From Alphaproteobacteria bacterium GM7ARS4 (GTDB taxonomy: Bacteria; Pseudomonadota; Alphaproteobacteria; GM7ARS4), in the NCBI GenBank assembly GCA_014332745.1, contig JACONL010000002.1:82919-146918 (forward strand): 64,000 nucleotides of DNA. Reading direction: 5' to 3'. Below the pieces are notes generated by a model. It saw nothing but the letters and a program-made list of their open reading frames with translations. It had not been told where the DNA came from and searched no databases. Below, piece after piece: positions 5,823 to 51,600 of this stretch (position 1 is its first letter; the number at the start of each line of letters is the position of its first letter). The position numbers and the translations under genes are program-made.

Positions 5823-7102
5823 GGCGTGTAAGTGATACGTCGATGATGTTTTTTTCCTTTGGAGAGGATGCATTGTTTGTCTGTATCGAAATGCTGTAGG
5901 GAGAGGGTCATGTGTTCGTCTGTGATGGTTTGTCGATTGATTTTGATAGCCTGTTGCGCGATGAGGCGTTTGGCGTCGCTACGGCTTTGACATAGGGCGC
6001 TCGTCATGAGGACATCGATGAGGGGGAGTCCGTGTTCTAGTTCTTGTTGGGTGAGGGTCGTGAGGGGCAAGTGATGTCCGATATGGTGTTTTTCGAAGGT
6101 GGCATCGGCGCTTTTTCTTGCGTCCCGCGCGGCGTCAGCGCCATGGAGGAGTTGGGTGGTGGCGTCAGCGAGCGCTTTTTTTGCGTCATTGAGTTTTTCG
6201 CCTGCATGGTCTGTGAGGGCGTGAATGGTGTCCACATCGATATCGGTAAAGAGGAGGAGGCATCGTCTCACATCGTCATCTCGACAATTGCGCCAGAATT
6301 GCCAATAGTCCCAGACGGATGTTTTATCGGCATGGAGCCATATGGCGCCTTGGGCGGTTTTTCCCATTTTTGCGCCTTGGGCGGTTGTCAGCAAGGGCAT
6401 GGTGAGTCCGTAGAGGGGTGGCAAAGAGGTTTTTTTGCGCGCCAGTTCGATCCCTGTGGTGATATTTCCCCATTGGTCGCTTCCTCCCATCTGTATGTAG
6501 CAGGCGTGCTGTTGTGCCATGACGAGGAAGTCATAGGCTTGGAGGACCATGTAGTTAAATTCGAGGAAGCTGAGATGTTGTTCGCGTTCCAGCCGTAGGC
6601 GTACGGAGTCGGCATTCAGCATGCGATTGACGGAGAGATGGCGTCCTATGTCTCTGAGGAATGGGATAAGGGCGAGGGGTTCTAGCCATGTGGCGTTATT
6701 GAAGGATTGGAAGGCGTTTGGGGCTTTTGGCGCGCATTGGATTTTGTCGAAGAGGGTTTGGATGGCTTGGCTGTTTTTGTGGATGGTATTTTTGTCGAGG
6801 AGGGCGCGTGTTGTATCTTTGCCAGAGGGGTCGCCTATGAGGCTTGTTCCTCCTCCCATGACGATGATGGGTTGATGGCCATGTTTTTGGAAGAGGCGTA
6901 ACATCATGAGGGGTGTGAGGCTTCCCACATGGAGGCTATCGGCTGTGGCATCGAAGCCGATATAGGCTTTGGCGTCTTTGTGTGTGTGGAGGACGTTATC
7001 GAGGGCTTGATAATCGGTGCATTGGTGGATGAATCCCCTTGCCCATGCCTCTTGGAGAAATGAGGAACGAAAGGGGTAAGGAGGTGATGGTGTGGCGTTC
7101 AT
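5819..7102 (-). CDS. tyrS: Tyrosyl-tRNA synthetase
   Basis: 427 aa with a class I aaRS HIGH-type region (FDATADSLHVGSL), KMSKS-type KMGKT and a C-terminal S4-like region. Confidence 0.9.
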   Translation of the reverse strand: MNATPSPPYPFRSSFLQEAWARGFIHQCTDYQALDNVLHTHKDAKAYIGFDATADSLHVGSLTPLMMLRLFQKHGHQPIIVMGGGTSLIGDPSGKDTTRALLDKNTIHKNSQAIQTLFDKIQCAPKAPNAFQSFNNATWLEPLALIPFLRDIGRHLSVNRMLNADSVRLRLEREQHLSFLEFNYMVLQAYDFLVMAQQHACYIQMGGSDQWGNITTGIELARKKTSLPPLYGLTMPLLTTAQGAKMGKTAQGAIWLHADKTSVWDYWQFWRNCRDDDVRRCLLLFTDIDVDTIHALTDHAGEKLNDAKKALADATTQLLHGADAARDARKSADATFEKHHIGHHLPLTTLTQQELEHGLPLIDVLMTSALCQSRSDAKRLIAQQAIKINRQTITDEHMTLSLQHFDTDKQCILSKGKKHHRRITYTP

Positions 7103-7206
7103 GGGTGATATGGTGATATAGGGTCTTGACGTAGGGGGCGTGTCGTTCTAGTGTGACCCTTTGTAGAGAGGGTGTGATGACTGACGAACGTGGGAGGTGG
7201 GAGCAT

Positions 7207-8898
7207 ATGGCGTCCAAAGGAAAATACAAGAGCGATATTGAGATTGCAAGGGCGGCGCATTTGCGTCCCATCATTGAGCTGGCCCGTGATAGGTTGGGGA
7301 TAGAGGCTGGTGACCTTCATCCCTATGGCCATGACAAGGCGAAACTTCCCCTAGAGTATATTGACAGCATGCATGGGCGTAAAGACGGCGTTCTGATTTT
7401 GGTGACAGCCATGACGCCGACGAAGGCTGGCGAAGGCAAGACGACCACCACCGTTGGTTTGGCTGATGGGCTTAATCGTCTAGGCAAGAGTTGTATTGCG
7501 GCATTGCGAGAGCCTAGTTTAGGGCCTTGCTTTGGCATGAAGGGGGGAGCAGCGGGGGGAGGATATGCGCAAGTGGTGCCGATGGTTGACATCAACCTTC
7601 ATTTCACGGGGGATTTTCATGCGATAACGTCGGCCCATATGTTGCTCTCGGCGATGGTGGATAACCATATTTACTGGCGTCATGACCCAAAGTTAGATCC
7701 TCGGCGCGTGGTATGGCGTCGTGTCGTCGATATGAATGACAGGGCGCTACGCCATGTGACAATCTCTCTGGGGGGTGTTGCCAATGGCTTTCCTCGTGAA
7801 GATGGCTTTGATATTACGGTGGCGTCAGAGGTGATGGCGATCTTATGTTTGGCGACAGACTTACAGGATTTGCGAGAGCGTTTAGGCAAGATTATTGTGG
7901 GGTATGACGAGAACAGGCAGGCTGTGACGGCGCGTGACCTCAAGGCAGACGGGGCGATGACGACGTTGTTGAAGGATGCGTTACAGCCCAATTTAGTGCA
8001 GACGTTAGAGAACAACCTTGCCTTTGTGCATGGTGGACCTTTTGCCAATATCGCCCATGGCTGTAATACGGTGTTAGCGACCAAGACGGCGCTGACCTTA
8101 GCGGATTATGTGGTGACGGAGGCGGGTTTTGGCGCGGATTTAGGGGCTGAGAAATTTTTTAATATTAAATGTCGTAAGAGTGGTCTTCGTCCGGCGGCGG
8201 CTGTTCTTGTGGCGACGGTGCGCGCTTTGAAGTTGCATGGCGGCGCTGATGAGAAGGCGCTCAGTCGCGAGGATGTGGGCGCTGTGAGTCAGGGATTGCC
8301 TAACGTTCTTCAGCATGTGGAAAATATCCAAAAGTTTGGCATTCCCGTCGTTGTGGCGATCAATCGTTTTCCCACCGACACGGAGGCTGAGATACGTGAG
8401 GTGCAACAGGCATGTCGGGAGCAAGGTGTCTCAGCGGTGTTGGCGGAGCATTGGGAGAAGGGGGGTGAAGGCGCTGTGGATTTAGCGCAGGAAGTCATTA
8501 ATGTGGCATCGAGAGGGAAGGGGGCGTTCACACCGCTCTATGACGACAAGACTCCCTTAGAAGAGAAGATAGAGATTGTTGCGCGGGAGATTTATCGTGC
8601 CGATGGTGTCGACATCGGGGCGGTGGCAAAGAAGAAGTTGCAAGACTACAAGGACATGGGCTTTGGTGATGTTCCTATCTGTATGGCGAAGACCCAGTAT
8701 AGTTTTTCCACCGACCCCAGTCGCAAAGGGGCGCCGAGAGGTTTTCGTCTTCCTGTGCGTGATGTGCGTTTATCGGCTGGCGCTGGTTTTGTCGTTGTCT
8801 TAGCGGGCGATATTATGACGATGCCGGGCTTGCCATCTCGTCCCGCCGCTGAGAGTGTGGGTGTCGATGATAAGGCTGTTGTCTATGGCTTGTTCTAG
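7207..8898 (+). CDS. fhs: Formate-tetrahydrofolate ligase
   Basis: N-terminus [17 protein letters not shown] with the [20 protein letters not shown]-loop typical of FTHFS, about 563 aa. The ATG at 7207 is preferred over the track start 7153. Confidence 0.9.
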
Positions 8899-8931
8899 TG
8901 AGGGTGAGGGCATGGGGAGACATGATGTGAT

Positions 8932-9501
8932 GTGGCGGGCTCGATGATGGCGCATGACGGGATAGTGGGTGTGTCGTGGCATGGGACGACTGTTTTAGCG
9001 GTGCGGAAGGGGGGACAGGTCGTCATGGCGGGCGATGGTCAGGTCACCCATGGGCAGACAATTCTGAAGTCTAATGCCAACAAGTTGCGTGTCATGCAGA
9101 AAGGACGTATCATCGCTGGCTTTGCTGGCAATACGGCTGATGCGTTGACGCTCTTTGCGCGCCTCGAGAACAAATTGGAGGAGCATGGTCGCCTCACACG
9201 CGCATGTGCCGAATTGGCAAAGGAGTGGCGCATGGACAAGTATTTACAGCGTTTAGAGGCGATGATGCTTGTTGCTGACAAAGAGCATACATTTCTTTTA
9301 TCTGGGTCTGGAGATATGATACAACCAGAGTATGACGTCATCAGCATTGGCTCTGGCGGCAATTATGCGATGGCGGCGGGGCGCGCTCTTTATGGGCGGG
9401 ACGATATGGATGCGGAGGCGATCGTGCGAGAGGCTATGGCGATCGCCGCTGACTTATGTATTTACACGAATCACGCCATCACGGTTCTAAAGGCAACGTA
9501 A
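8932..9501 (+). CDS. hslV: ATP-dependent protease subunit HslV
   Basis: [39 protein letters not shown], with the N-terminal Thr nucleophile after a short alpha-type leader. Located directly upstream of hslU. Confidence 0.9.
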
Positions 9502-9520
9502 AGGCACGGGAGGCGAGTCT

Positions 9521-10849
9521 ATGGCGGCAGAACAACAGCGTTTCTTTTTACCCAGTGAGATTATCTCTCAGCTTAATCGTTTTATTGTGGGTCAAGAAGG
9601 CGCGAAGAAGGCGGTGGCTGTTGCCCTACGTAATCGTTGGCGACGTCAACGGGTGGCTGACCATGCTTTGCGTCAAGAGATTCTTCCCAAGAATCTCCTC
9701 ATGATAGGGCCGACAGGGGTTGGCAAGACAGAGATAGCGCGTCGGCTTGCCTCTCTGTCCAGCTCACCTTTCATCAAAGTCGAGGCGACGAAATTCACAG
9801 AAGTAGGCTATGTGGGGAGGGATGTGGAACAAATTGTCCGCGACCTTGTGGGGGTGGCCATCAATATGACTCGCCATGAGATGCGTGAGAAAAACAGGGA
9901 GGCGACTGAGCATGCTGTTCTCAAGATGCTGCTCAGGAAGCTAGAGAAAGAGGACAATGCTGTCTACGATGCGAGCCACATAGAGCCTTTACGTGAGGGG
10001 CGCTATGACCATAAGAACGTCACTATTGAGACGTCAGAGAGTTCATCCTCCTCCATGCCGTTGATGGATATTCCGGGTGTGCCGGGCGCGCAGATAGGCA
10101 TGATGAATGTCAACGACATGATAGGCCGCATGATGGGTGGCGGACGCAAGAAGAAACGACAGGTGAGCGTCAAGGACGCAAAGAAAATTCTCTTTGAGAT
10201 AGAGAGCGACAAGTTAATGGATGAGGAGCATGTGGCGCGTCAGTCTATCGAGAAGGTTGAGGAGCATGGCATTGTGTTTCTTGATGAGATCGACAAGATA
10301 TGTGTATCGCGTGATGGCAGGCGTGGTGGCGATGTGAGTCGTGAAGGCGTGCAGCGTGACCTTCTTCCTCTTATTGAGGGGACGATCGTGCAGACTCGTC
10401 ATGGCTCTGTGAAGACAGACCATATTTTATTTATTGCGTCTGGTGCGTTTCACTTTGCCAAGCCGTCTGATTTGATGCCCGAGTTGCAGGGGCGTTTGCC
10501 TGTGCGTGTGTCGTTGGAGTCGTTATCCCGTGAGGATTTTGTCCGTATTTTGACGGAGCCTGAGAATAATTTAGTGCGTCAATATAAGGCGTTAATGGAG
10601 ACGGAAGGGGTTATGCTTGAGGTGACGGAGGATGCCATTGAGGAGATCGCGGCGATGGCGACAAAAATCAATGCCGATGTGGAGAATATCGGGGCGAGGC
10701 GTCTACACACGTTGTTAGAGAAAGTTCTCGAGGACATCAGTTTTAGGGCTGGTGATACGGAGGGTGCGTTTTCCGTTGACAAGGCCTATGTGCGTGAGCG
10801 TTTGCGTGATGTTGTGAGTGAGCAAGACTTATCGCGCTTTATTTTGTAG
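9521..10849 (+). CDS. hslU: ATP-dependent protease ATPase subunit HslU
   Basis: 442 aa with the Walker A motif IGPTGVGKTEIARRLA and an HslU-type N-terminus (IVGQEGAKKAVAVALRNRWRR). Confidence 0.92.
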   Translation: MAAEQQRFFLPSEIISQLNRFIVGQEGAKKAVAVALRNRWRRQRVADHALRQEILPKNLLMIGPTGVGKTEIARRLASLSSSPFIKVEATKFTEVGYVGRDVEQIVRDLVGVAINMTRHEMREKNREATEHAVLKMLLRKLEKEDNAVYDASHIEPLREGRYDHKNVTIETSESSSSSMPLMDIPGVPGAQIGMMNVNDMIGRMMGGGRKKKRQVSVKDAKKILFEIESDKLMDEEHVARQSIEKVEEHGIVFLDEIDKICVSRDGRRGGDVSREGVQRDLLPLIEGTIVQTRHGSVKTDHILFIASGAFHFAKPSDLMPELQGRLPVRVSLESLSREDFVRILTEPENNLVRQYKALMETEGVMLEVTEDAIEEIAAMATKINADVENIGARRLHTLLEKVLEDISFRAGDTEGAFSVDKAYVRERLRDVVSEQDLSRFIL

Positions 10850-11845
10850 CGCCTGTTGCCATGTATCGTTGGCGGATGGTGTGTTCTGGAGTCTGATACC
10901 GCGTTTATTGCTGATCATGGTGGGGGCGCATGTGGCGATAGTGTGATTCTTGAGGGAGAGGATGAGGCTCTGTTTTTGCGGGGGAATAGGGATGGGCTGG
11001 CGCTGTGGGTTTGTCCCTGTGAGTTTTGAGAGGCAGATGGGGAATCTGTCGCTATGACATTCTAGGACGTAGGACTCTTGCTCTGTTTGGGCGGGCGGTA
11101 GGGGCGCATCGAGCCATATGTGCTGTTCTTGGTCTTTTCTTGTGCTGAGGCGTAGGGTCTTACCGAGACAGAGGACGGGCTGGTGCATGCGGGGGCTGAC
11201 ATCAAAGAAGACAATATCGCCGGCGTGCCATGTATGGATGTGCTCTATGGATTCGATGGTGATGAGTCCGTAGAGGAAGTATGCGGGGATGGAGATGGGG
11301 TGGTGGATGGTGGCGTCAGCGGACGCAAAACGTTGGAGGATAGCTATCCATGCGTCATGCTGACCTTGGGGGATTTGGACGCACACAGGAATGGTATTTC
11401 CATGGCTCAGTGTCCACAGCCCGTGGAGGGAGAGCATATCGGCGTCTGTGGGATGAGGGTCATGCTGGTTGGCGATATGGCGGGCGTCGGTGATCTCGAC
11501 GGAGAGGCCAAGCTGGTGGGCGCATGCATCGATGATATGGTGGGCTTGGTCGGCCATGAAGGCGGATTGGATGGCGGGGTCTGCTTTATCCCATAGTGAC
11601 GAGAGTCCATTATGCCATGAGGGGTCGAGGGCAATATCTGGCAAGCGCACTCTGAGAGGGCATGGGCCCAAGAGCGCGCCAATGTCCCAGCACCATGCTT
11701 CGCTCTGCTCTGTGGCGGGATGGTGAGCGGTGAGGGTGAACGTAGCTTGTTGTCCCGCGCCATAGTGGAGTTGGACGGGATGGCGTTGGAGCGCTTGTTC
11801 TATATGGCTTTTCTTATCATTGAGAGGATGGGCAAGGGACAGCAT
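10829..11845 (-). CDS. sctQ: Putative T3SS cytoplasmic-ring protein SctQ (YscQ-like), divergent and His-rich
   Basis: Lies immediately downstream of the sctP T3S4-domain ORF (3 nt gap, same frame). The mid-region IPAYFLYGLITIESIEHIHTWHAGDIVFFD...PVLCLGKT resembles the YscQ segment RIPLPILISLRWHKVYLTLDEVDSLRLGDVLLAP...SPVLAYVGEN. The C-terminal SpoA-like region is weak. The ATG at 11845 is preferred over the TTG at 11854. Confidence 0.45.
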   Translation of the reverse strand: MLSLAHPLNDKKSHIEQALQRHPVQLHYGAGQQATFTLTAHHPATEQSEAWCWDIGALLGPCPLRVRLPDIALDPSWHNGLSSLWDKADPAIQSAFMADQAHHIIDACAHQLGLSVEITDARHIANQHDPHPTDADMLSLHGLWTLSHGNTIPVCVQIPQGQHDAWIAILQRFASADATIHHPISIPAYFLYGLITIESIEHIHTWHAGDIVFFDVSPRMHQPVLCLGKTLRLSTRKDQEQHIWLDAPLPPAQTEQESYVLECHSDRFPICLSKLTGTNPQRQPIPIPPQKQSLILSLKNHTIATCAPTMISNKRGIRLQNTPSANDTWQQALQNKAR

Positions 11846-11857
11846 GGAGGACAATGT

Positions 11858-12199
11858 TTATTCGTTCTGTTCTTGTCGGTAGGCTTCGGCATAGGCGCGT
11901 TGCTGTGATTCTTCTTGTTCCGAGTCTTGACTTTGGTAGTCGAGGCGCACCGTGACCTCATGGTCTGTTTGTTCGCTGAGGAAGCTTTGGAGTCCTTCGA
12001 TATGGCCGCTCATGATGTTATGGGAGAGGGGCGATGACGTTGAGACGACGACGCTGAGTTTTCCGTGCTGTTGATGGAGTTGAATATCGGTGCGTGGGAG
12101 GATGGAGTCATGGACGGTGATATGGACTCGTGATTCGCCGGGCTGATTGTTGTGTTGGACAAGGATTTTTTGGGCAATGTCTTGGATATTGTGTGGCAT
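11858..12199 (-). CDS. sctP: T3SS needle-length regulator SctP, C-terminal T3S4 (FliK-like) domain ORF
   Basis: 113-aa ORF with a T3S4-like alternating hydrophobic pattern (RVHITVHDSILPRTDIQLHQQHGKLSVVVSTSSPLSHNIMSGHIEGLQSFLSEQTDHEVTVRL). It sits between sctV and sctQ, as in sctP-sctQ operons. Confidence 0.55.
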   Translation of the reverse strand: MPHNIQDIAQKILVQHNNQPGESRVHITVHDSILPRTDIQLHQQHGKLSVVVSTSSPLSHNIMSGHIEGLQSFLSEQTDHEVTVRLDYQSQDSEQEESQQRAYAEAYRQEQNE

Positions 12200-28089: not shown

Positions 28090-28629
28090 ATGTATCTATT
28101 GGACTCCTACTTTAGGTTTAACAAGCTCGATGTTCATATTTATGATGCCAGCAAACATAGGAAGGATGTGAACATATTCAAAATTGTGAAGAAGAATTAC
28201 GGCGATGAAAAGCAATTTGACATTGATATTGTCGTCAAAAACGTGAGGAAGGAGGATAAAAAATACTTCCTCATATCATGTAAGGGGAGTGCCAGGGAAG
28301 GGATAGGGCAATATCTGTCGAATCTTTTCTTAATGGATGACCGATTGATAAAGGCAAAATACAGGGATAGCTATTATTTGGAATTCGCACGGAAGGGGGT
28401 GAAAATCAAATATGCCTTTGTTTGTTATGATTGGGGCAAAACGAAAGACTTCCTAAAATACACGAAAACAGGGAAGGAAAGGGAGACGTTGAAAAGCACA
28501 GAGATTCTCCTTATCAATGACGAGAATTACATCAGTGGTGGGATTGCTGTGCTTAACAATCATGAAAACCTTGATGGTGTTGTCAATTTTGGCACATTGG
28601 CGGCGAGAATCGCCCAGTTTCTCAACTGA
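28090..28629 (+). CDS. Hypothetical Lys-rich protein in an AT-rich single-gene islet; no family assignable
   Basis: 180-aa ORF whose DNA is about 38-40% GC against about 56% on both sides. The high-GC 5' part of track ORF 27886-28629 is unlikely to be coding, so the start is taken at MYLLDSY. Contains FDIDIVVKN...KYFLISCKGSAREG, loosely reminiscent of PD-(D/E)xK/NERD/Mrr-like nuclease cores (speculative). Confidence 0.45.
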   Translation: MYLLDSYFRFNKLDVHIYDASKHRKDVNIFKIVKKNYGDEKQFDIDIVVKNVRKEDKKYFLISCKGSAREGIGQYLSNLFLMDDRLIKAKYRDSYYLEFARKGVKIKYAFVCYDWGKTKDFLKYTKTGKERETLKSTEILLINDENYISGGIAVLNNHENLDGVVNFGTLAARIAQFLN

Positions 28630-28951
28630 CAGCTTTGAGGGCGGATTGTGTGTTGTCTTCATAGTGGAAGAGGGCGTCTAAGCCAGCCACGCGAAAGACG
28701 TCACGCACCTCAGCATTGATGGCACAAAGGATGAATTGTTTGGGGGTTGTCCCTTTCTGTTGTGCCATGAGGAGGACGCGCAAGCCCGCACTCGTGATGA
28801 ATGGCATCGCATGGCCATCTAAGATGACGGCATCGGCATCCTCGAAGAGCGGAAGCAACTGCTCTTGTAAGTCTTGGGCGTTATGGGAGTCGACGCTGTC
28901 TTGTGGCGCAACGACTACAGTGCGGCCATGGGGTGTGATGGTGATGTCCAT
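28622..28951 (-). CDS. STAS-domain anti-sigma-factor antagonist (SpoIIAA/RsbV/BtrV-like)
   Basis: 109 aa with the STAS pattern (LDGHAMPFITSAGLRVLLMAQQKG...ILCAINAEVRDVFRVAGLDALF). Lies immediately downstream of and co-oriented with the ECF sigma gene. Confidence 0.7.
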   Translation of the reverse strand: MDITITPHGRTVVVAPQDSVDSHNAQDLQEQLLPLFEDADAVILDGHAMPFITSAGLRVLLMAQQKGTTPKQFILCAINAEVRDVFRVAGLDALFHYEDNTQSALKAVS

Positions 28952-28981
28952 AAAATGATATGTGATGATACGTTCTATGGG

Positions 28982-29839
28982 TTATGACCGAGCGATGATG
29001 GAGCTTGTGCGGGCATGGAGGGGGGCGGTATGTCCCGCCTCATGACCTTGTGGTGTGGGGGCGCGGTATGGGCGCACCGAACGTTGGAATGTGCGCGCTG
29101 CCTCAGTGGCGTGCGTCGAGACGTCATGCTGTTTGGGGGAACGAAGGCGCTTATAGAGCGCGCTCTCTTTGCGTCTCATGAGAGAGACGCCACTCTCTAA
29201 CGATTTGCTGTTCATTTTGCGTTTGAGCTGGGAACGGGCTCTCGACAGGCGCGAACGCACCGTGCCAACGGAAATCCCCAACTGCGTGCTAATATCCTCG
29301 TAGGAATGTTCTTCCACGACCATCTTGAGGACGGAACGCAATTTATGGGGAAGGCTATCGATGGAGAGATCGACTTGGCTGATATGTTCCTTATTCTCGG
29401 TGTCTTGCTCGGGCGTATTCTCTTTTGACGGCGTGTTGATAAGAATATCCGTATCGACGAATTGGTAGCGAAAACTGGGAGAGCGGTGAACATAGTTGCG
29501 TATGATGTTGCGGGCAATGCCGAAGAGCCATGTAGAGGGCGCGGAGTCGCCACGAAATTTATGGTAGGCGCGCGTCGCCTCCACACACGTGCTCTGAAAT
29601 AAATCCTCTGTAAAGTCAGGATATTTGATATTGCGGGCAATAAAATGGTGCAATTTATCCTTATTCTTGGCGATGAGCTTCTCTAACTCAACGATGTTTT
29701 TGATGGGCGCATGGAGGGGGGGTGTTTGGGGCGATGTGCCGTTGTGAGGAGAGGCATAATGGGCGGTGGTGTGAGACGTGGTATGAGACGTGGTGTGAGA
29801 CGTGGTGACGGGCGGGCTATGGGGTATCTCTTGCGACAT
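28982..29839 (-). CDS. ECF-type RNA polymerase sigma factor with N-terminal (TSHT)n repeat and ~90-aa basic C-terminal extension
   Basis: Sigma-2 region (LFQSTCVEATRAYHKFRGDSAPSTWLFGIARNIIRNYVHR) and sigma-4 HTH (EEHSYEDISTQLGISVGTVRSRLSRARSQLKRKM), followed by a basic low-complexity tail. Confidence 0.8.
   Translation of the reverse strand: MSQEIPHSPPVTTSHTTSHTTSHTTAHYASPHNGTSPQTPPLHAPIKNIVELEKLIAKNKDKLHHFIARNIKYPDFTEDLFQSTCVEATRAYHKFRGDSAPSTWLFGIARNIIRNYVHRSPSFRYQFVDTDILINTPSKENTPEQDTENKEHISQVDLSIDSLPHKLRSVLKMVVEEHSYEDISTQLGISVGTVRSRLSRARSQLKRKMNSKSLESGVSLMRRKESALYKRLRSPKQHDVSTHATEAARTFQRSVRPYRAPTPQGHEAGHTAPLHARTSSIIARS
29768..29803. repeat. 3 x 12-nt tandem repeat (ggtgtgagacgt) inside the 5' end of the ECF sigma gene
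   Basis: Units ggtgtgagacgt / ggtatgagacgt / ggtgtgagacgt plus a partial fourth. They encode TSHT-TSHT-TSHT on the minus strand and keep the frame. Confidence 0.7.
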
Positions 29840-48744: not shown

Positions 48745-50004
48745 CTATTGCTTTGCTCGACTTTTTTCGGCATAGATACAGAGAGGCTTTGTTTTCTCGT
48801 CGGCGACTTCTTTATTGATGACAACTTCGACGATACCGTCGTTGCTTGGGACGTCGAACATGGTATCGAGGAGGATATTTTCCATGATAGAGCGTAAGCC
48901 GCGAGCGCCTGTTTTGCGTTTTTTTGCGCGTTGGGCGATAATTTGGAGGGCTTCGTCCGTAAAGGTGAGTTTCACGTTATCCATGTGCAGGAGCGCCTGA
49001 TATTGTTTGACGAGGGCATTGCGTGGTTTTGTGAGGACATTGATGAGGGCTTTTTCGTCCAGTTCATGCATGGTGGCGAGGACGGGAAGGCGTCCGATAA
49101 ATTCGGGGATGAGCCCAAATTTGAGGAGGTCTTCAGGTTCGATATGTTGCAAGATTGTTTGTGCGTGCTGTTGGGAATGTTCGTGCATATCGGTGCCAAA
49201 GCCGATGGCGGTGCCTTTGGTGCGTTCGGTGATGATGCGTTCTAAGCCAGAGAAGGCGCCCCCACAGATGAAGAGGATATTGGATGTATCGACTTGTAAG
49301 CATTCCTGCTGGGGGTGTTTGCGTCCGCCTTGGGGGGGAACGGAGGCGATAGAGCCTTCCATAATTTTGAGGAGTGCTTGTTGTACGCCTTCACCGGACA
49401 CGTCGCGTGTGATCGAGAGGTTATCGGCTTTACGGCTGATTTTGTCGACTTCGTCAATATAGACGATACCTTTTTGGGCCTGTTGCACATCGTGGTCTGC
49501 CGCTTGCAGGAGTTTCAGGATGATATTTTCCACGTCTTCCCCTACATAGCCTGCCTCTGTCAGCGTTGTCGCGTCCGCCATTGTGAAGGGGACATTGATC
49601 ACCCGTGCGAGGGTCTCAGCAATAAGGGTCTTGCCACATCCTGTGGGCCCTATGAGCAGGATGTTGGATTTAGCGATCTCGACATCACTATTTTTCTGTC
49701 CTTTATCGAGGCGTTTATAGTGGTTATGGACGGCAACAGAGAGTGTGCGCTTCGCCACATCTTGTCCAATAACGTAATCATCGAGGATGTGGTAAATATC
49801 TTTAGGCGTGGGGACCTCGCTGGTATAGCCATTCCCTTGTTTTGTGGCATTTTCTTCGTGGATAATATCCATGCAGAGTTCGATACATTCATCACATATG
49901 AAGACGGTCGGTCCTGCGATAAGCTTACGCACTTCGTGCTGGCTTTTACCGCAAAACGAGCAATAGAGGATATTTTTGGAATCTTGAGAGGAGTCTTTAG
50001 ACAT
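48745..50004 (-). CDS. clpX: ATP-dependent Clp protease ATPase subunit ClpX
   Basis: N-terminal zinc-binding C4 motif (CSFCGKS...CDECIELC) and Walker [16 protein letters not shown]. clpP is not immediately upstream. Confidence 0.95.
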
Positions 50005-50049
50005 GAATGGCGCGCGCTCTATTGAATGACATTTCTTTATACACCCTCA

Positions 50050-51600
50050 CTATACCTTATGTAACACTTTGCGTCTATAATTCAAGGCGTGGGCAATATG
50101 GTATTTATTGATGGGGGCGTTCATATCTTGCGTGTCCATATCGCACAATGTGCGTGCCAATCGTAAGACTTTGTGGTAGGAGCGGGCGGATAGTTTTAAG
50201 GTGTCTATGGCATCAGCAAGGATATGTGACTCTTTGTGTCCCAGTGGGGCAATTTCTTCGAGAATTTTTCCGTCCGCTTGGGCGTTAAGATAGAGCGTGT
50301 TTAGGTTCATGGTGCGGAATCGTTCCTGCTGTAGCTGGCGTGTTTGTGCGACTCGTTTGGCGATGGTGGTCGAGTTTGTTTGCTGTGAGGGTGTGGGCTG
50401 TATGAGTTCTCTGGCATTCAGTTCGGGGACGTCCACATAGAGGTCGATACGGTCATAGAGGGGTCCTGATATGCGGTTTTGATAGGCGCGTATTTTTGTT
50501 TTTGTGCATGAGCACTCTACTTTTTCTGAGCCGTGATAACCGCATGGGCATGGGTTCATGGCGGCGATGAGTTGGAATTGGGCGGGATAATGGCAGTGTG
50601 CTTTTGCCCGTGCGACGAGGACGAAGCCGCTTTCTATGGGTTGTCGTAGTGCTTCGAGGGTGGAGCGTGAGAATTCTGGCAATTCATCGAGGAAGAGGAC
50701 TCCTCGGTGGCAGAGGCTCACTTCGCCGGGGCGTGCGAGTTTATCGCCGCCGATGAGGGAGGGGAGCGATGCTGAGTGATGTGGTGCGCGATAAGGTCGT
50801 TGAGTGACGATAGACTCTTTAGGCATGGTGCCAGCGAGGGAGTGAATCATGCTCACTTCGAGGGCTTCTTGGGATGACAGGGGTGGGAGAATGGTATGCA
50901 GGCGTGACGCCAGCATAGATTTTCCCGCCCCGGGCGAGCCTACCATGAGCATGTGATGTCCTCCTGATGCGGCGATTTCTATGGCGTATTTTGCGTCTTC
51001 TTGTCCTTTGATGTCGACAAAGTCTGGCAGAGGGTGGGTGTCTTTTTGCTCACAGCTGTTGATGGGGAGTTGGGGTGGTGCGATGGTTTGCGTGCCGCGC
51101 CAGTGATTGACGAGGGCGATAAGGCTATCAGGGGCAAGAATATCCACATGGTCGCCAGCAAAGCGCGCTTCTTGTCCGCATGCATGGGGGCATATGACGC
51201 CGTAATCATGGTGGGATGCGAAGAGGGAAGCAGGCAGGACACCGGGGACGGAGGTGATATGGGCGTCAAGGGATAGTTCGCCCAAGGCAATAGCGCCATC
51301 GCCATCGGATTGGGGCAGAATCTTCATCTCAAAGAGGAGGGCGAGGGCGATAGGCAGGTCATAGTGGCTTCCTGTCTTTCGAAGGTCAGCGGGGGCAAGG
51401 TTGACGATGATACGTTTTGACGGCAAGGCGATGCCTATGGATTGTAATGCTGAGCGGACTCGTTCTCGGGATTCGTCTACGCCTTTATCAGGCAGGCCAA
51501 CGATTTGGAAGGATGGCATGCCTGCGCCCATATGGGCTTGGACATCAACTTTATGGGTATTTAGGCCAAGAAAGGCGACGGTGGTGGCGCGTGCGACCAT
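50050..51600 (-). CDS. YifB/ComM-family Mg-chelatase-like AAA+ ATPase
   Basis: 516 aa with a Lon-like N-terminal domain and AAA+ motif (MLMVGSPGAGKSMLASRL), colinear with YifB/ComM. Confidence 0.85.
   Translation of the reverse strand: MVARATTVAFLGLNTHKVDVQAHMGAGMPSFQIVGLPDKGVDESRERVRSALQSIGIALPSKRIIVNLAPADLRKTGSHYDLPIALALLFEMKILPQSDGDGAIALGELSLDAHITSVPGVLPASLFASHHDYGVICPHACGQEARFAGDHVDILAPDSLIALVNHWRGTQTIAPPQLPINSCEQKDTHPLPDFVDIKGQEDAKYAIEIAASGGHHMLMVGSPGAGKSMLASRLHTILPPLSSQEALEVSMIHSLAGTMPKESIVTQRPYRAPHHSASLPSLIGGDKLARPGEVSLCHRGVLFLDELPEFSRSTLEALRQPIESGFVLVARAKAHCHYPAQFQLIAAMNPCPCGYHGSEKVECSCTKTKIRAYQNRISGPLYDRIDLYVDVPELNARELIQPTPSQQTNSTTIAKRVAQTRQLQQERFRTMNLNTLYLNAQADGKILEEIAPLGHKESHILADAIDTLKLSARSYHKVLRLARTLCDMDTQDMNAPINKYHIAHALNYRRKVLHKV

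Follow-up and report, generated by a model that had tools for sequence, protein, structure and literature searches.

The window analysed here, a 64-kb stretch of DNA, belongs to GM7ARS4, a 1.59-Mb MAG of 52% GC that is assigned to "Ca. Methylospongiales" and originates from the sponge Lamellodysidea herbacea, and a T3SS in this MAG has already been reported (PMC7313196). Gene decay is expected in the setting of such a reduced sponge-symbiont genome. As listed in Table 1, the gene under study lies between a divergent OMP beta-barrel gene and a STAS gene with which it overlaps at its 3' end, an ECF sigma factor gene is located beyond the latter, and the T3SS genes SctN and YscO are close by. This placement between the OMP gene and the STAS/ECF pair, near the secretion locus, is the one described in the original prediction, with the qualification that the OMP match itself is weak.

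Table 1. Features of the locus in window coordinates
Feature	Position	Strand	Remark
T3SS genes SctN and YscO			Neighbours, immediately left of the OMP/remnant neighbourhood
OMP beta-barrel gene	27012-27716	-	Pfam E 1.6e-4, weak, below the curated cut-off
Spacer, divergent OMP gene to remnant	27717-28011	.	295 bp
Putative remnant restriction-endonuclease gene	28012-28629	+	205 codons from TTG, plus stop
E22-E23 codons (P0005 E71-E72)	28075-28080	+	Acidic pair on the long helix
ORF as originally predicted, sub-part of the remnant	28090-28629	+	ATG start, 179 aa
D70-I-D72 codons (FDIDI)	28219-28227	+	Predicted catalytic aspartates; invariant, 48/48
S89-C-K91 codons (S/T-x-K)	28276-28284	+	Includes the predicted catalytic lysine; invariant, 48/48
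R95-E96-G97 codons	28294-28302	+	Degenerate form of the predicted CCGG-recognition motif; R-E-R in all other members
8-bp convergent overlap	28622-28629	.	End and stop codon of the remnant against the stop and last codons of the STAS gene (minus strand)
STAS gene	28622-28951	-	Neighbour
ECF sigma factor gene	28982-29839	-	Neighbour

The gene forms part of a 247-codon open frame on the plus strand (27886-28629, TGA stop at 28627-28629). In the alignments as well as by tblastn, homology to the protein family described below set in abruptly at nucleotides 28009-28015 (KKRGTDRTQK...), 78 nt upstream of the ATG at 28090, and the preceding stretch of the open frame (27886-28011) showed no family homology. 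NCBI calls this gene of GM7ARS4 from a TTG at 28012 as a 205-aa "hypothetical" protein, which is 100% identical to the window product. As Shine-Dalgarno motifs are mostly absent from the native genes here, they are uninformative for the choice of the start codon. According to the alignment, the residues G-R-V-A-E-E-T-L precede the Met encoded at 28090, and a product starting there would be without the conserved Glu pair. A 76-aa antisense ORF (27861-28091) gave no Pfam match.

Scanning of the junctions against shuffled sequences revealed no flanking repeats above chance, as the original prediction had noted by eye, and no promoter or terminator above the level of the shuffles; the frequency of promoter-like sites at the segment likewise did not exceed that in shuffles. 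The 15-42 kb region of the window contains no tRNA gene, no integrase or transposase ORF adjoins the gene, and an Rfam scan of 27000-29200 gave no match. In the nearest relatives (SctN 80% identical, including the sister MAG GM202ARS2), the T3SS block is common up to YscO and diverges thereafter, while the HpaP-HslUV-FTHFS-TyrS block of these relatives is inverted at 5.8-12.2 kb of the window. Compared with the sister genomes, a rearrangement breakpoint thus lies about 1 kb from the gene. Neither an empty nor an intact ancestral site was recovered via the SctN orthologues, with synteny ending right after YscO.

Family assignment by fold, motifs and gene context

When 5.8 billion proteins were searched, the identical NCBI protein and 11 relatives with 48-64% identity were returned, and the subsequent profile search led to 69 clusters, nearly all of them 245-270 aa in length. 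As an exhaustive scan of 1.84 billion representatives with HMMER retrieved only 46 proteins, the family is a small one. RE_BsaWI (PF18643) was the sole Pfam family matched. The window protein scored E 0.008 and 16.7 bits, below the gathering threshold of 26.2 bits, and 10 of 13 close relatives matched the same family weakly but independently (best E 1.7e-5). These scores suggest that the family is a sister subfamily and no formal member of PF18643. NCBIfam and PADLOC scans of the window protein gave no match, and the family has been unannotated until now. As phmmer and profile hmmsearch against the PDB sequences also returned nothing meaningful, the proteins were modelled, and only the comparison of folds tied the family to solved structures.

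The AF2 model of a full-length relative (P0005), which was built on a 48-sequence alignment, reached a pLDDT of 94.5 and a pTM of 0.91. It opens with four short helices (residues 10-47), which a connecting helix of 30 residues (55-84) joins to an alpha/beta core. When this model was compared with the PDB by Foldseek, PfoI 6EKO was matched with E 4.7e-8 and TMq 0.65 and apo-PfoI was also matched, followed by Kpn2I (E 1e-4), with Cfr10I further down. The 205-aa window product was modelled with a pLDDT of 93.6, a confident fold despite the missing N-domain, and its top four Foldseek matches were PfoI (two entries, E 1.3e-4), BsaWI 4ZSF (E 2e-3, prob 1.00) and Kpn2I (E 1e-2). A structure search with AlphaFold plus Foldseek had been suggested as a check of the earlier guess that the protein is a nuclease, and the top matches PfoI, BsaWI and Kpn2I bear that guess out.

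The sequence motifs of the family fit these matches. In P0005, D117-x-D119 and S135-x-K137 are invariant across the 48 aligned sequences, R141 and E142 are likewise invariant (48/48), and R143 is kept in 47 of 48, the window copy being the exception. In CCGG-family enzymes, the catalytic Lys follows the catalytic Asp by 18-20 residues, or by up to about 50 in some members. Here the spacing from D117 to K137 is 20 residues and that from D119 to K137 is 18 (in the window copy, 20+1 for D70 to K91 and 18+1 for D72 to K91), and R-E-R occupies K+4, K+5 and K+6 at the N-terminus of helix 143-153 of the P0005 model. From about K+10 to K+13, where a second acidic residue or a Gln completes the active site in CCGG-family enzymes, there is no acidic residue; an invariant Q is found at K+9 and an invariant D at K+18. 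By analogy, a PfoI-like D-x-D may be the alternative supplier of the second carboxylate. An upstream Glu on the long N-terminal helix approaching the minor groove is part of the CCGG-family plan, and on this helix E71 (P0005 numbering) is kept in 47 of 48 members. The corresponding pair E22-E23 lies on helix 7-36 of the window model and is encoded only when the TTG at 28012 serves as the start, and it is the predicted counterpart of BsaWI E92 and NgoMIV E70, with a role deduced from these enzymes (PMC4652773, PMC6344858).

Among the named enzymes, BsaWI (W/CCGGW, 4ZSF) has the same plan as the family, with an N-terminal helical domain, a long helix and a PD...K domain in 272 aa, compared with about 250 aa in the family. 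Its residues are E92, D145 and K165 with a D to K distance of 20, and a contiguous R169-D170-R171 occupies K+4, K+5 and K+6 (PMC4652773), so that both the spacing and the contiguous R-(D/E)-R agree with the family. On the other hand, identity is only about 12%, and BsaWI D175 (K+10) has no acidic counterpart in the family. PfoI (T/CCNGGA, 6EKO/6EK1) is the best structural match, and the spacing of 18 in the D-x-D...K of the family mirrors the permuted PfoI active site E167-x-D169...K187, in which D and K are also 18 apart (PMC6344858). It differs by its permuted recognition residues R189-x-K191-E192, where the family has the canonical contiguous R-E-R, and by its length of 312 aa, extra N-subdomain elements, a base-flipping pocket and an identity of 12-14%. 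Kpn2I (T/CCGGA, 6EKR) and the Cfr10I/NgoMIV/Bse634I group share the CCGG-family core and the S/T-x-K lysine followed by the recognition helix, but their structural scores are lower and their oligomeric states differ (tetramers); the NgoMIV-type enzymes further deviate by an R-x-D-R spacing and a Glu at K+13/14.

The gene context of the relatives points in the same direction. In all four full-length relatives first looked up, the restriction gene (R) is directly preceded on its own strand by a PF01555 N6/N4 methyltransferase gene, which abuts or overlaps the start of R. The survey was then widened to 13 named genomes and further contigs. An orthologous methyltransferase gene (M) is located directly upstream in 16 of the 16 distinct loci that have upstream DNA, a count that leaves aside one locus where the contig end falls inside R. 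The methyltransferases of the survey share 53-67% identity with those of the four loci looked up first. The enzymes of the relatives carry TSPPY...DMFGGSGT, which we take to be the beta-class order with SPPY as motif IV. Because SPPY is more typical of N4-cytosine than of N6-adenine methyltransferases, the motif suggests an N4-cytosine (m4C) enzyme.

The hosts of the family are widely scattered, comprising Kapaibacteria/Ignavibacteria, Bacteroidota (Bacteroidia), Caldisericota, WOR-3, Stahlbacteria, the betaproteobacterium Limnohabitans and an Altiarchaeales archaeon. Such a patchy host spread is typical of restriction-modification (R-M) systems and implies that the genes were acquired horizontally at some point, and no family relatives were detected in the plasmid and phage collections. 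The nearest R homologues came from metagenome contigs, one of them labelled as sponge metagenome, which hints at exchange within sponge microbiomes. Apart from the window copy, no copy lacking the methyltransferase was found among the 69 clusters and 19 loci. An independently decaying copy of the same type of R-M system is seen at one further locus (L024), where fragments of the methyltransferase (72 aa) and of R (175 aa) are accompanied by an inserted gene.

On the basis of fold, motifs and gene context, the window gene and its family are predicted to be CCGG-family type IIP restriction endonucleases, and the product of 28012-28629 would comprise, according to the models, the long connecting helix and the catalytic C-domain of a BsaWI/PfoI/Kpn2I-like enzyme of this family. 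In CCGG-family enzymes, recognition of the half-site relies on two arginines, which form hydrogen bonds with the guanines, and on an acidic residue, which bonds both cytosines (PMC6344858), and by analogy the specificity of the present family for CCGG is presumed. The protein, which had been regarded as being of an unrecognisable family, can thus be placed by fold and motifs, and the suggestion of a PD-(D/E)xK-type nuclease, possibly an orphan restriction enzyme, agrees with the fold, the motifs and the gene context. The window copy is a new but degenerate member of an already known group.

Defects and intactness of the window copy

In the full-length relatives, the N-terminus extends about 48 residues further and includes a near-invariant G-N-x-L-N motif. 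The window copy is without these residues 1 to about 48, the part that comprises helices 10-47 of the P0005 model. Its homology begins at alignment column 63, a position in the loop that links the N-domain to the long helix, and from the sequence the deletion junction would lie at about 28006-28011. In BsaWI, the N-domains are swapped between the subunits, form a primary dimer interface of about 2000 Å² and make most of the backbone contacts.

The second defect concerns the methyltransferase. Using tblastn and HMM searches of six-frame translations, no methyltransferase was detected upstream of the gene or elsewhere in the 64 kb of the 1.59-Mb genome, and searching the spacer and the whole window for traces of the N-domain or of the methyltransferase by the same means gave noise only (E > 0.5 for the spacer). 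The search for a cognate methyltransferase, which the original prediction had proposed, is therefore consistent with an orphan status as far as these 64 kb are concerned.

The third defect lies in the recognition motif. R-E-G occurs in the window copy only (1/48), whereas the Arg is present in 47 of the 47 other members. The codon of G97 is GGG (28300-28302), a single base off AGG or CGG. As the recognition motif is permuted among the CCGG subfamilies (K-D-R in EcoRII, E-R...K in AgeI and R-x-K-E in PfoI), the change from R to G alone is no proof of inactivity. In sum, the window copy is unlike BsaWI in having no N-domain, R-E-G in place of the contiguous motif and no methyltransferase.

The rest of the gene is well preserved. 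Its 205 codons contain no stop and no frameshift, every invariant residue other than the Arg of R-E-R is kept in them, and the copy is off consensus at 5 of the 50 highly conserved columns, four of these changes being conservative, which is within the range of the family. This intact frame together with the conserved residues indicates that the copy was either disabled very recently or is still under selection. The truncated, probably disarmed state of the gene had escaped the first reading of this DNA.

Base composition and codon usage

The GC content of 28090-28629 is 39.4% against a mean of 52.2% for the 64-kb window, and this is the minimum among all 540-bp values of the window (sd 2.8%, z = -4.6). 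The AT-rich islet of about 38-40% GC seen originally is thus real, but the surroundings are at about 52-54% and not at about 56%. The claim that the GC drop coincides exactly with the ORF boundaries did not hold, since the homologous coding sequence starts 78 nt upstream and its first 26 codons (28012-28089) have a host-like GC content of 56%. Only one other place in the window falls below 45% GC. As it lies inside clpX, native genes can dip as well.

We then calculated the GC content expected when the codon usage of 30 native ORFs is applied to the amino-acid sequence of the gene. Host usage predicted a GC of 42.4±1.2% and a GC3 of 53.2±3.3%, and the observed values were 41.6% and 54.1%. Since host codon usage reproduces the observed GC, the dip is attributable to the Lys/Asn/Tyr/Ile-rich composition of the family. 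The GC1/GC2/GC3 values of the gene are 0.42/0.29/0.54, with a GC3 of 0.54-0.63 in native genes. Its synonymous-codon log-likelihood (-1.089) ranks 33rd of 41 host genes (mean -1.131±0.054), while the R and M genes of the relatives score -1.15 to -1.27 under host usage. In the contrast of host against relatives' usage the gene ranks lowest of the host genes, a measure that is confounded by amino-acid composition. The R genes of the relatives have a GC3 of 0.13-0.47 and always lie below their flanks.

The composition therefore provides no evidence of recent arrival. The codon-usage check that had been proposed for a recent acquisition speaks against it (GC3 0.541 versus 0.532±0.033 expected), and the synonymous codons are indistinguishable from those of host genes. 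These host-like synonymous sites probably reflect a long residence in the lineage under constraint at the protein level. Most simply, the gene has been resident for long and selection, presumably acting as long as the R-M pair was complete, has maintained its protein sequence; otherwise, the donor would have had to share the codon usage of the host.

Interpretation of the locus

Because the methyltransferase, the N-domain and the Arg of R-E-R are all missing, the gene is most likely a disarmed remnant of a type II R-M system, and we hold with good confidence that 28012-28629 is what is left of such an operon after decay. The intact operon would have had the order 5'-M-R-3', in which M was a beta-class N6/N4 amino-methyltransferase (PF01555) and R a type IIP endonuclease of about 250 aa. 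In the latter, an N-terminal helical domain would have provided the dimer contacts and the hold on the backbone as in BsaWI, followed by the Glu-bearing long helix and the PD...K domain, and the R-E-R after the catalytic Lys would have read the guanines and cytosines of CCGG. One or more deletions would have taken M and the first 48 or so codons of R, and thereby the whole N-domain, and a single base change would have turned the last Arg of R-E-R into Gly. The remaining connecting helix and catalytic domain most likely constitute no working restriction enzyme. We infer this loss of activity, as well as the order and timing of the events, in which the gene would probably have been in the lineage for long and have lost its partner comparatively recently.

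Since R is lethal when active in the absence of M, a surviving fragment is expected to be inactive. Conversely, the likely inactivity of the remnant would account for its being tolerated with no methyltransferase to protect the DNA. By analogy with the characterized enzymes, the loss of the N-domain and the loss of the guanine-reading Arg are each a plausible cause of such inactivity. The loss of the partner, the 5' truncation and the point inactivation of a toxic R resemble what is seen in orphan or degraded R-M genes of reduced or host-associated genomes. Unlike orphan R-M genes in general, a fragment of R survives here and M is gone completely; it is the methyltransferase that more usually survives as the orphan of a degraded R-M system.

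The best of the alternatives, though an unlikely one, is that the protein consisting of the C-domain only is expressed and selected for a new role, such as a DNA-binding protein, a nicking enzyme or a repair nuclease with relaxed or altered specificity, for which no methyltransferase is needed. Its 205-codon ORF has remained intact in a genome that is strongly reduced, D-x-D, S-x-K and the Glu are all kept while the departures at conserved columns stay within the family range, and the model folds confidently without the N-domain. In addition, the host-like synonymous sites and family-like GC1/GC2 imply a long constraint on the protein, but this constraint is equally explained by the time spent in a working R-M pair. 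No second copy without a methyltransferase turned up among the 69 clusters and 19 loci, and the part that is gone is the one that makes the dimer interface and the backbone contacts in BsaWI. A more specific form of this idea, a selected core in which the change from R to G relaxed or re-targeted recognition, acting as a monomeric nickase, a repair nuclease or a decoy against R-M systems of the same family, is to be regarded as slightly less likely still.

Much less probable is an active solitary restriction enzyme that is guarded in trans by a methyltransferase whose gene lies elsewhere in the genome. The predicted catalytic residues are intact and the 64-kb window represents 4% of the genome, but the enzyme would have to work without its N-domain and the recognition Arg, and in every intact relative M lies immediately upstream of R, often overlapping its start. 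CCGG is depleted in the window (42 observed versus 82 expected, 0.51), which would fit such an enzyme, yet the depletion of palindromes is general here, with ratios of 0.13 for CCWGG, 0.26 for GATC and 0.35 for GGCC. Avoidance of CCGG was also considered as a sign of past activity and was rejected, as the depletion of 0.51 is weaker than that of several other palindromes.

Finally, a recent single-gene island, or a horizontally acquired T3SS effector or toxin as once envisaged from the proximity to the secretion locus, is very improbable: the gene does have the lowest GC of the window, is near SctN/YscO and the ECF/STAS pair, has a rearrangement breakpoint at a distance of about 1 kb and belongs to a patchily distributed family, but host codon usage accounts for its GC3 and for the dip, neither repeats nor a tRNA gene nor an integrase is nearby, no plasmid or phage copies were found, and fold, motifs and the obligatory pairing with a methyltransferase are those of a restriction enzyme whose relatives occur in phyla without an evident link to a T3SS, including an archaeon. 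On this evidence, the remnant gene would have no bearing on the T3SS.

With a decayed R-M remnant as the preferred reading, the "hypothetical protein" of GM7ARS4 and its family of about 69 clusters can be labelled as a BsaWI/PfoI-like subfamily accompanied by a PF01555 (SPPY) methyltransferase. New CCGG-type specificities may be found among the intact members, and the family is worth a REBASE-style annotation. The locus is also a clean case of a sharp GC islet that can be misread as a recent transfer, the dip vanishing once the amino-acid composition is controlled. For the organism itself, it would capture a stage in the decay of an R-M system within a reduced symbiont genome, with the toxic partner disarmed and the antidote lost.

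Borders of the remnant and its flanking genes

The remnant, a truncated CCGG-family restriction-endonuclease (R) gene, overlaps the convergent STAS gene by 8 bp, and its 3' end encodes the stop and the last two codons of STAS. Either the arrival of restriction-modification (R-M) DNA remodelled the STAS C-terminus, or the overlap arose later by evolution. On the other side of the remnant, the spacer that separates it from the OMP gene contains a near-perfect hairpin with a 9-bp stem (AGGCAAGGC...GCCTTGCCT), for which no Rfam match was found. The ECF sigma factor encoded next to STAS carries an unusual N-terminal extension, in which the tandem peptide repeat TSHTT occurs three times and a Pro/His/Thr-rich tail precedes region 2.

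Coordinates of the features discussed (positions in the window unless a contig or locus is named)
Feature	Position	Strand	Remark
HpaP-to-TyrS block	5846-12199		compared with the T3SS block and L021 11320-19536
Non-flagellar T3SS gene block	24493-27002 and upstream		FliH-like/SctL, SctN, YscO
Hairpin	27803-27837		spacer
Remnant/STAS overlap	28622-28629		
ECF sigma factor	28982-29839	-	adjoins STAS gene
clpX	48745-50004	-	housekeeping gene
Low-GC stretch	49600-50300		within clpX
R-M regions, contig L003	137-1920 and 5138-6756		
Decaying copy, contig L024	3254-5528		

Rearrangement beside the T3SS block

The T3SS of this MAG has already been published (PMC7313196); the NCBI call for SctN is 10 codons shorter than a possible reading of the ORF in the window. 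Compared with the nearest genomes available (80% identity in SctN; locus L021), the block comprising HpaP, a 325-aa gene, HslU, HslV, FTHFS and TyrS has been inverted and relocated across the T3SS block. The breakpoint, which lies immediately past YscO (27002), is separated from the remnant by about 1 kb.

R-M genes in relatives and composition of the window

Among the contigs carrying relatives of the remnant, L003 harbors, at a distance of 4 kb from the methyltransferase-R pair of this family, a second R-M pair made up of a PF01555 methyltransferase and a BanI_C/DpnII-like R; the two pairs form a small R-M island. An independently decaying copy was observed on L024: its methyltransferase and R are reduced to fragments of 72 aa and 175 aa, and it also contains an inserted gene of 374 aa.

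Apart from the remnant, only one stretch of the window falls below 45% GC, and it is located inside the housekeeping gene clpX; therefore, local GC dips here can come from amino-acid composition alone.

Short palindromes are strongly under-represented in the whole 64-kb window relative to maximal-order Markov expectation: CCWGG (8 observed vs 63 expected), GATC (71 vs 276), GGCC (114 vs 329), CCGG (42 vs 82) and CTAG (45 vs 95), while GCGC showed no depletion in the same whole-window test. This depletion suggests that the reduced symbiont genome has met several R-M systems over a long history.
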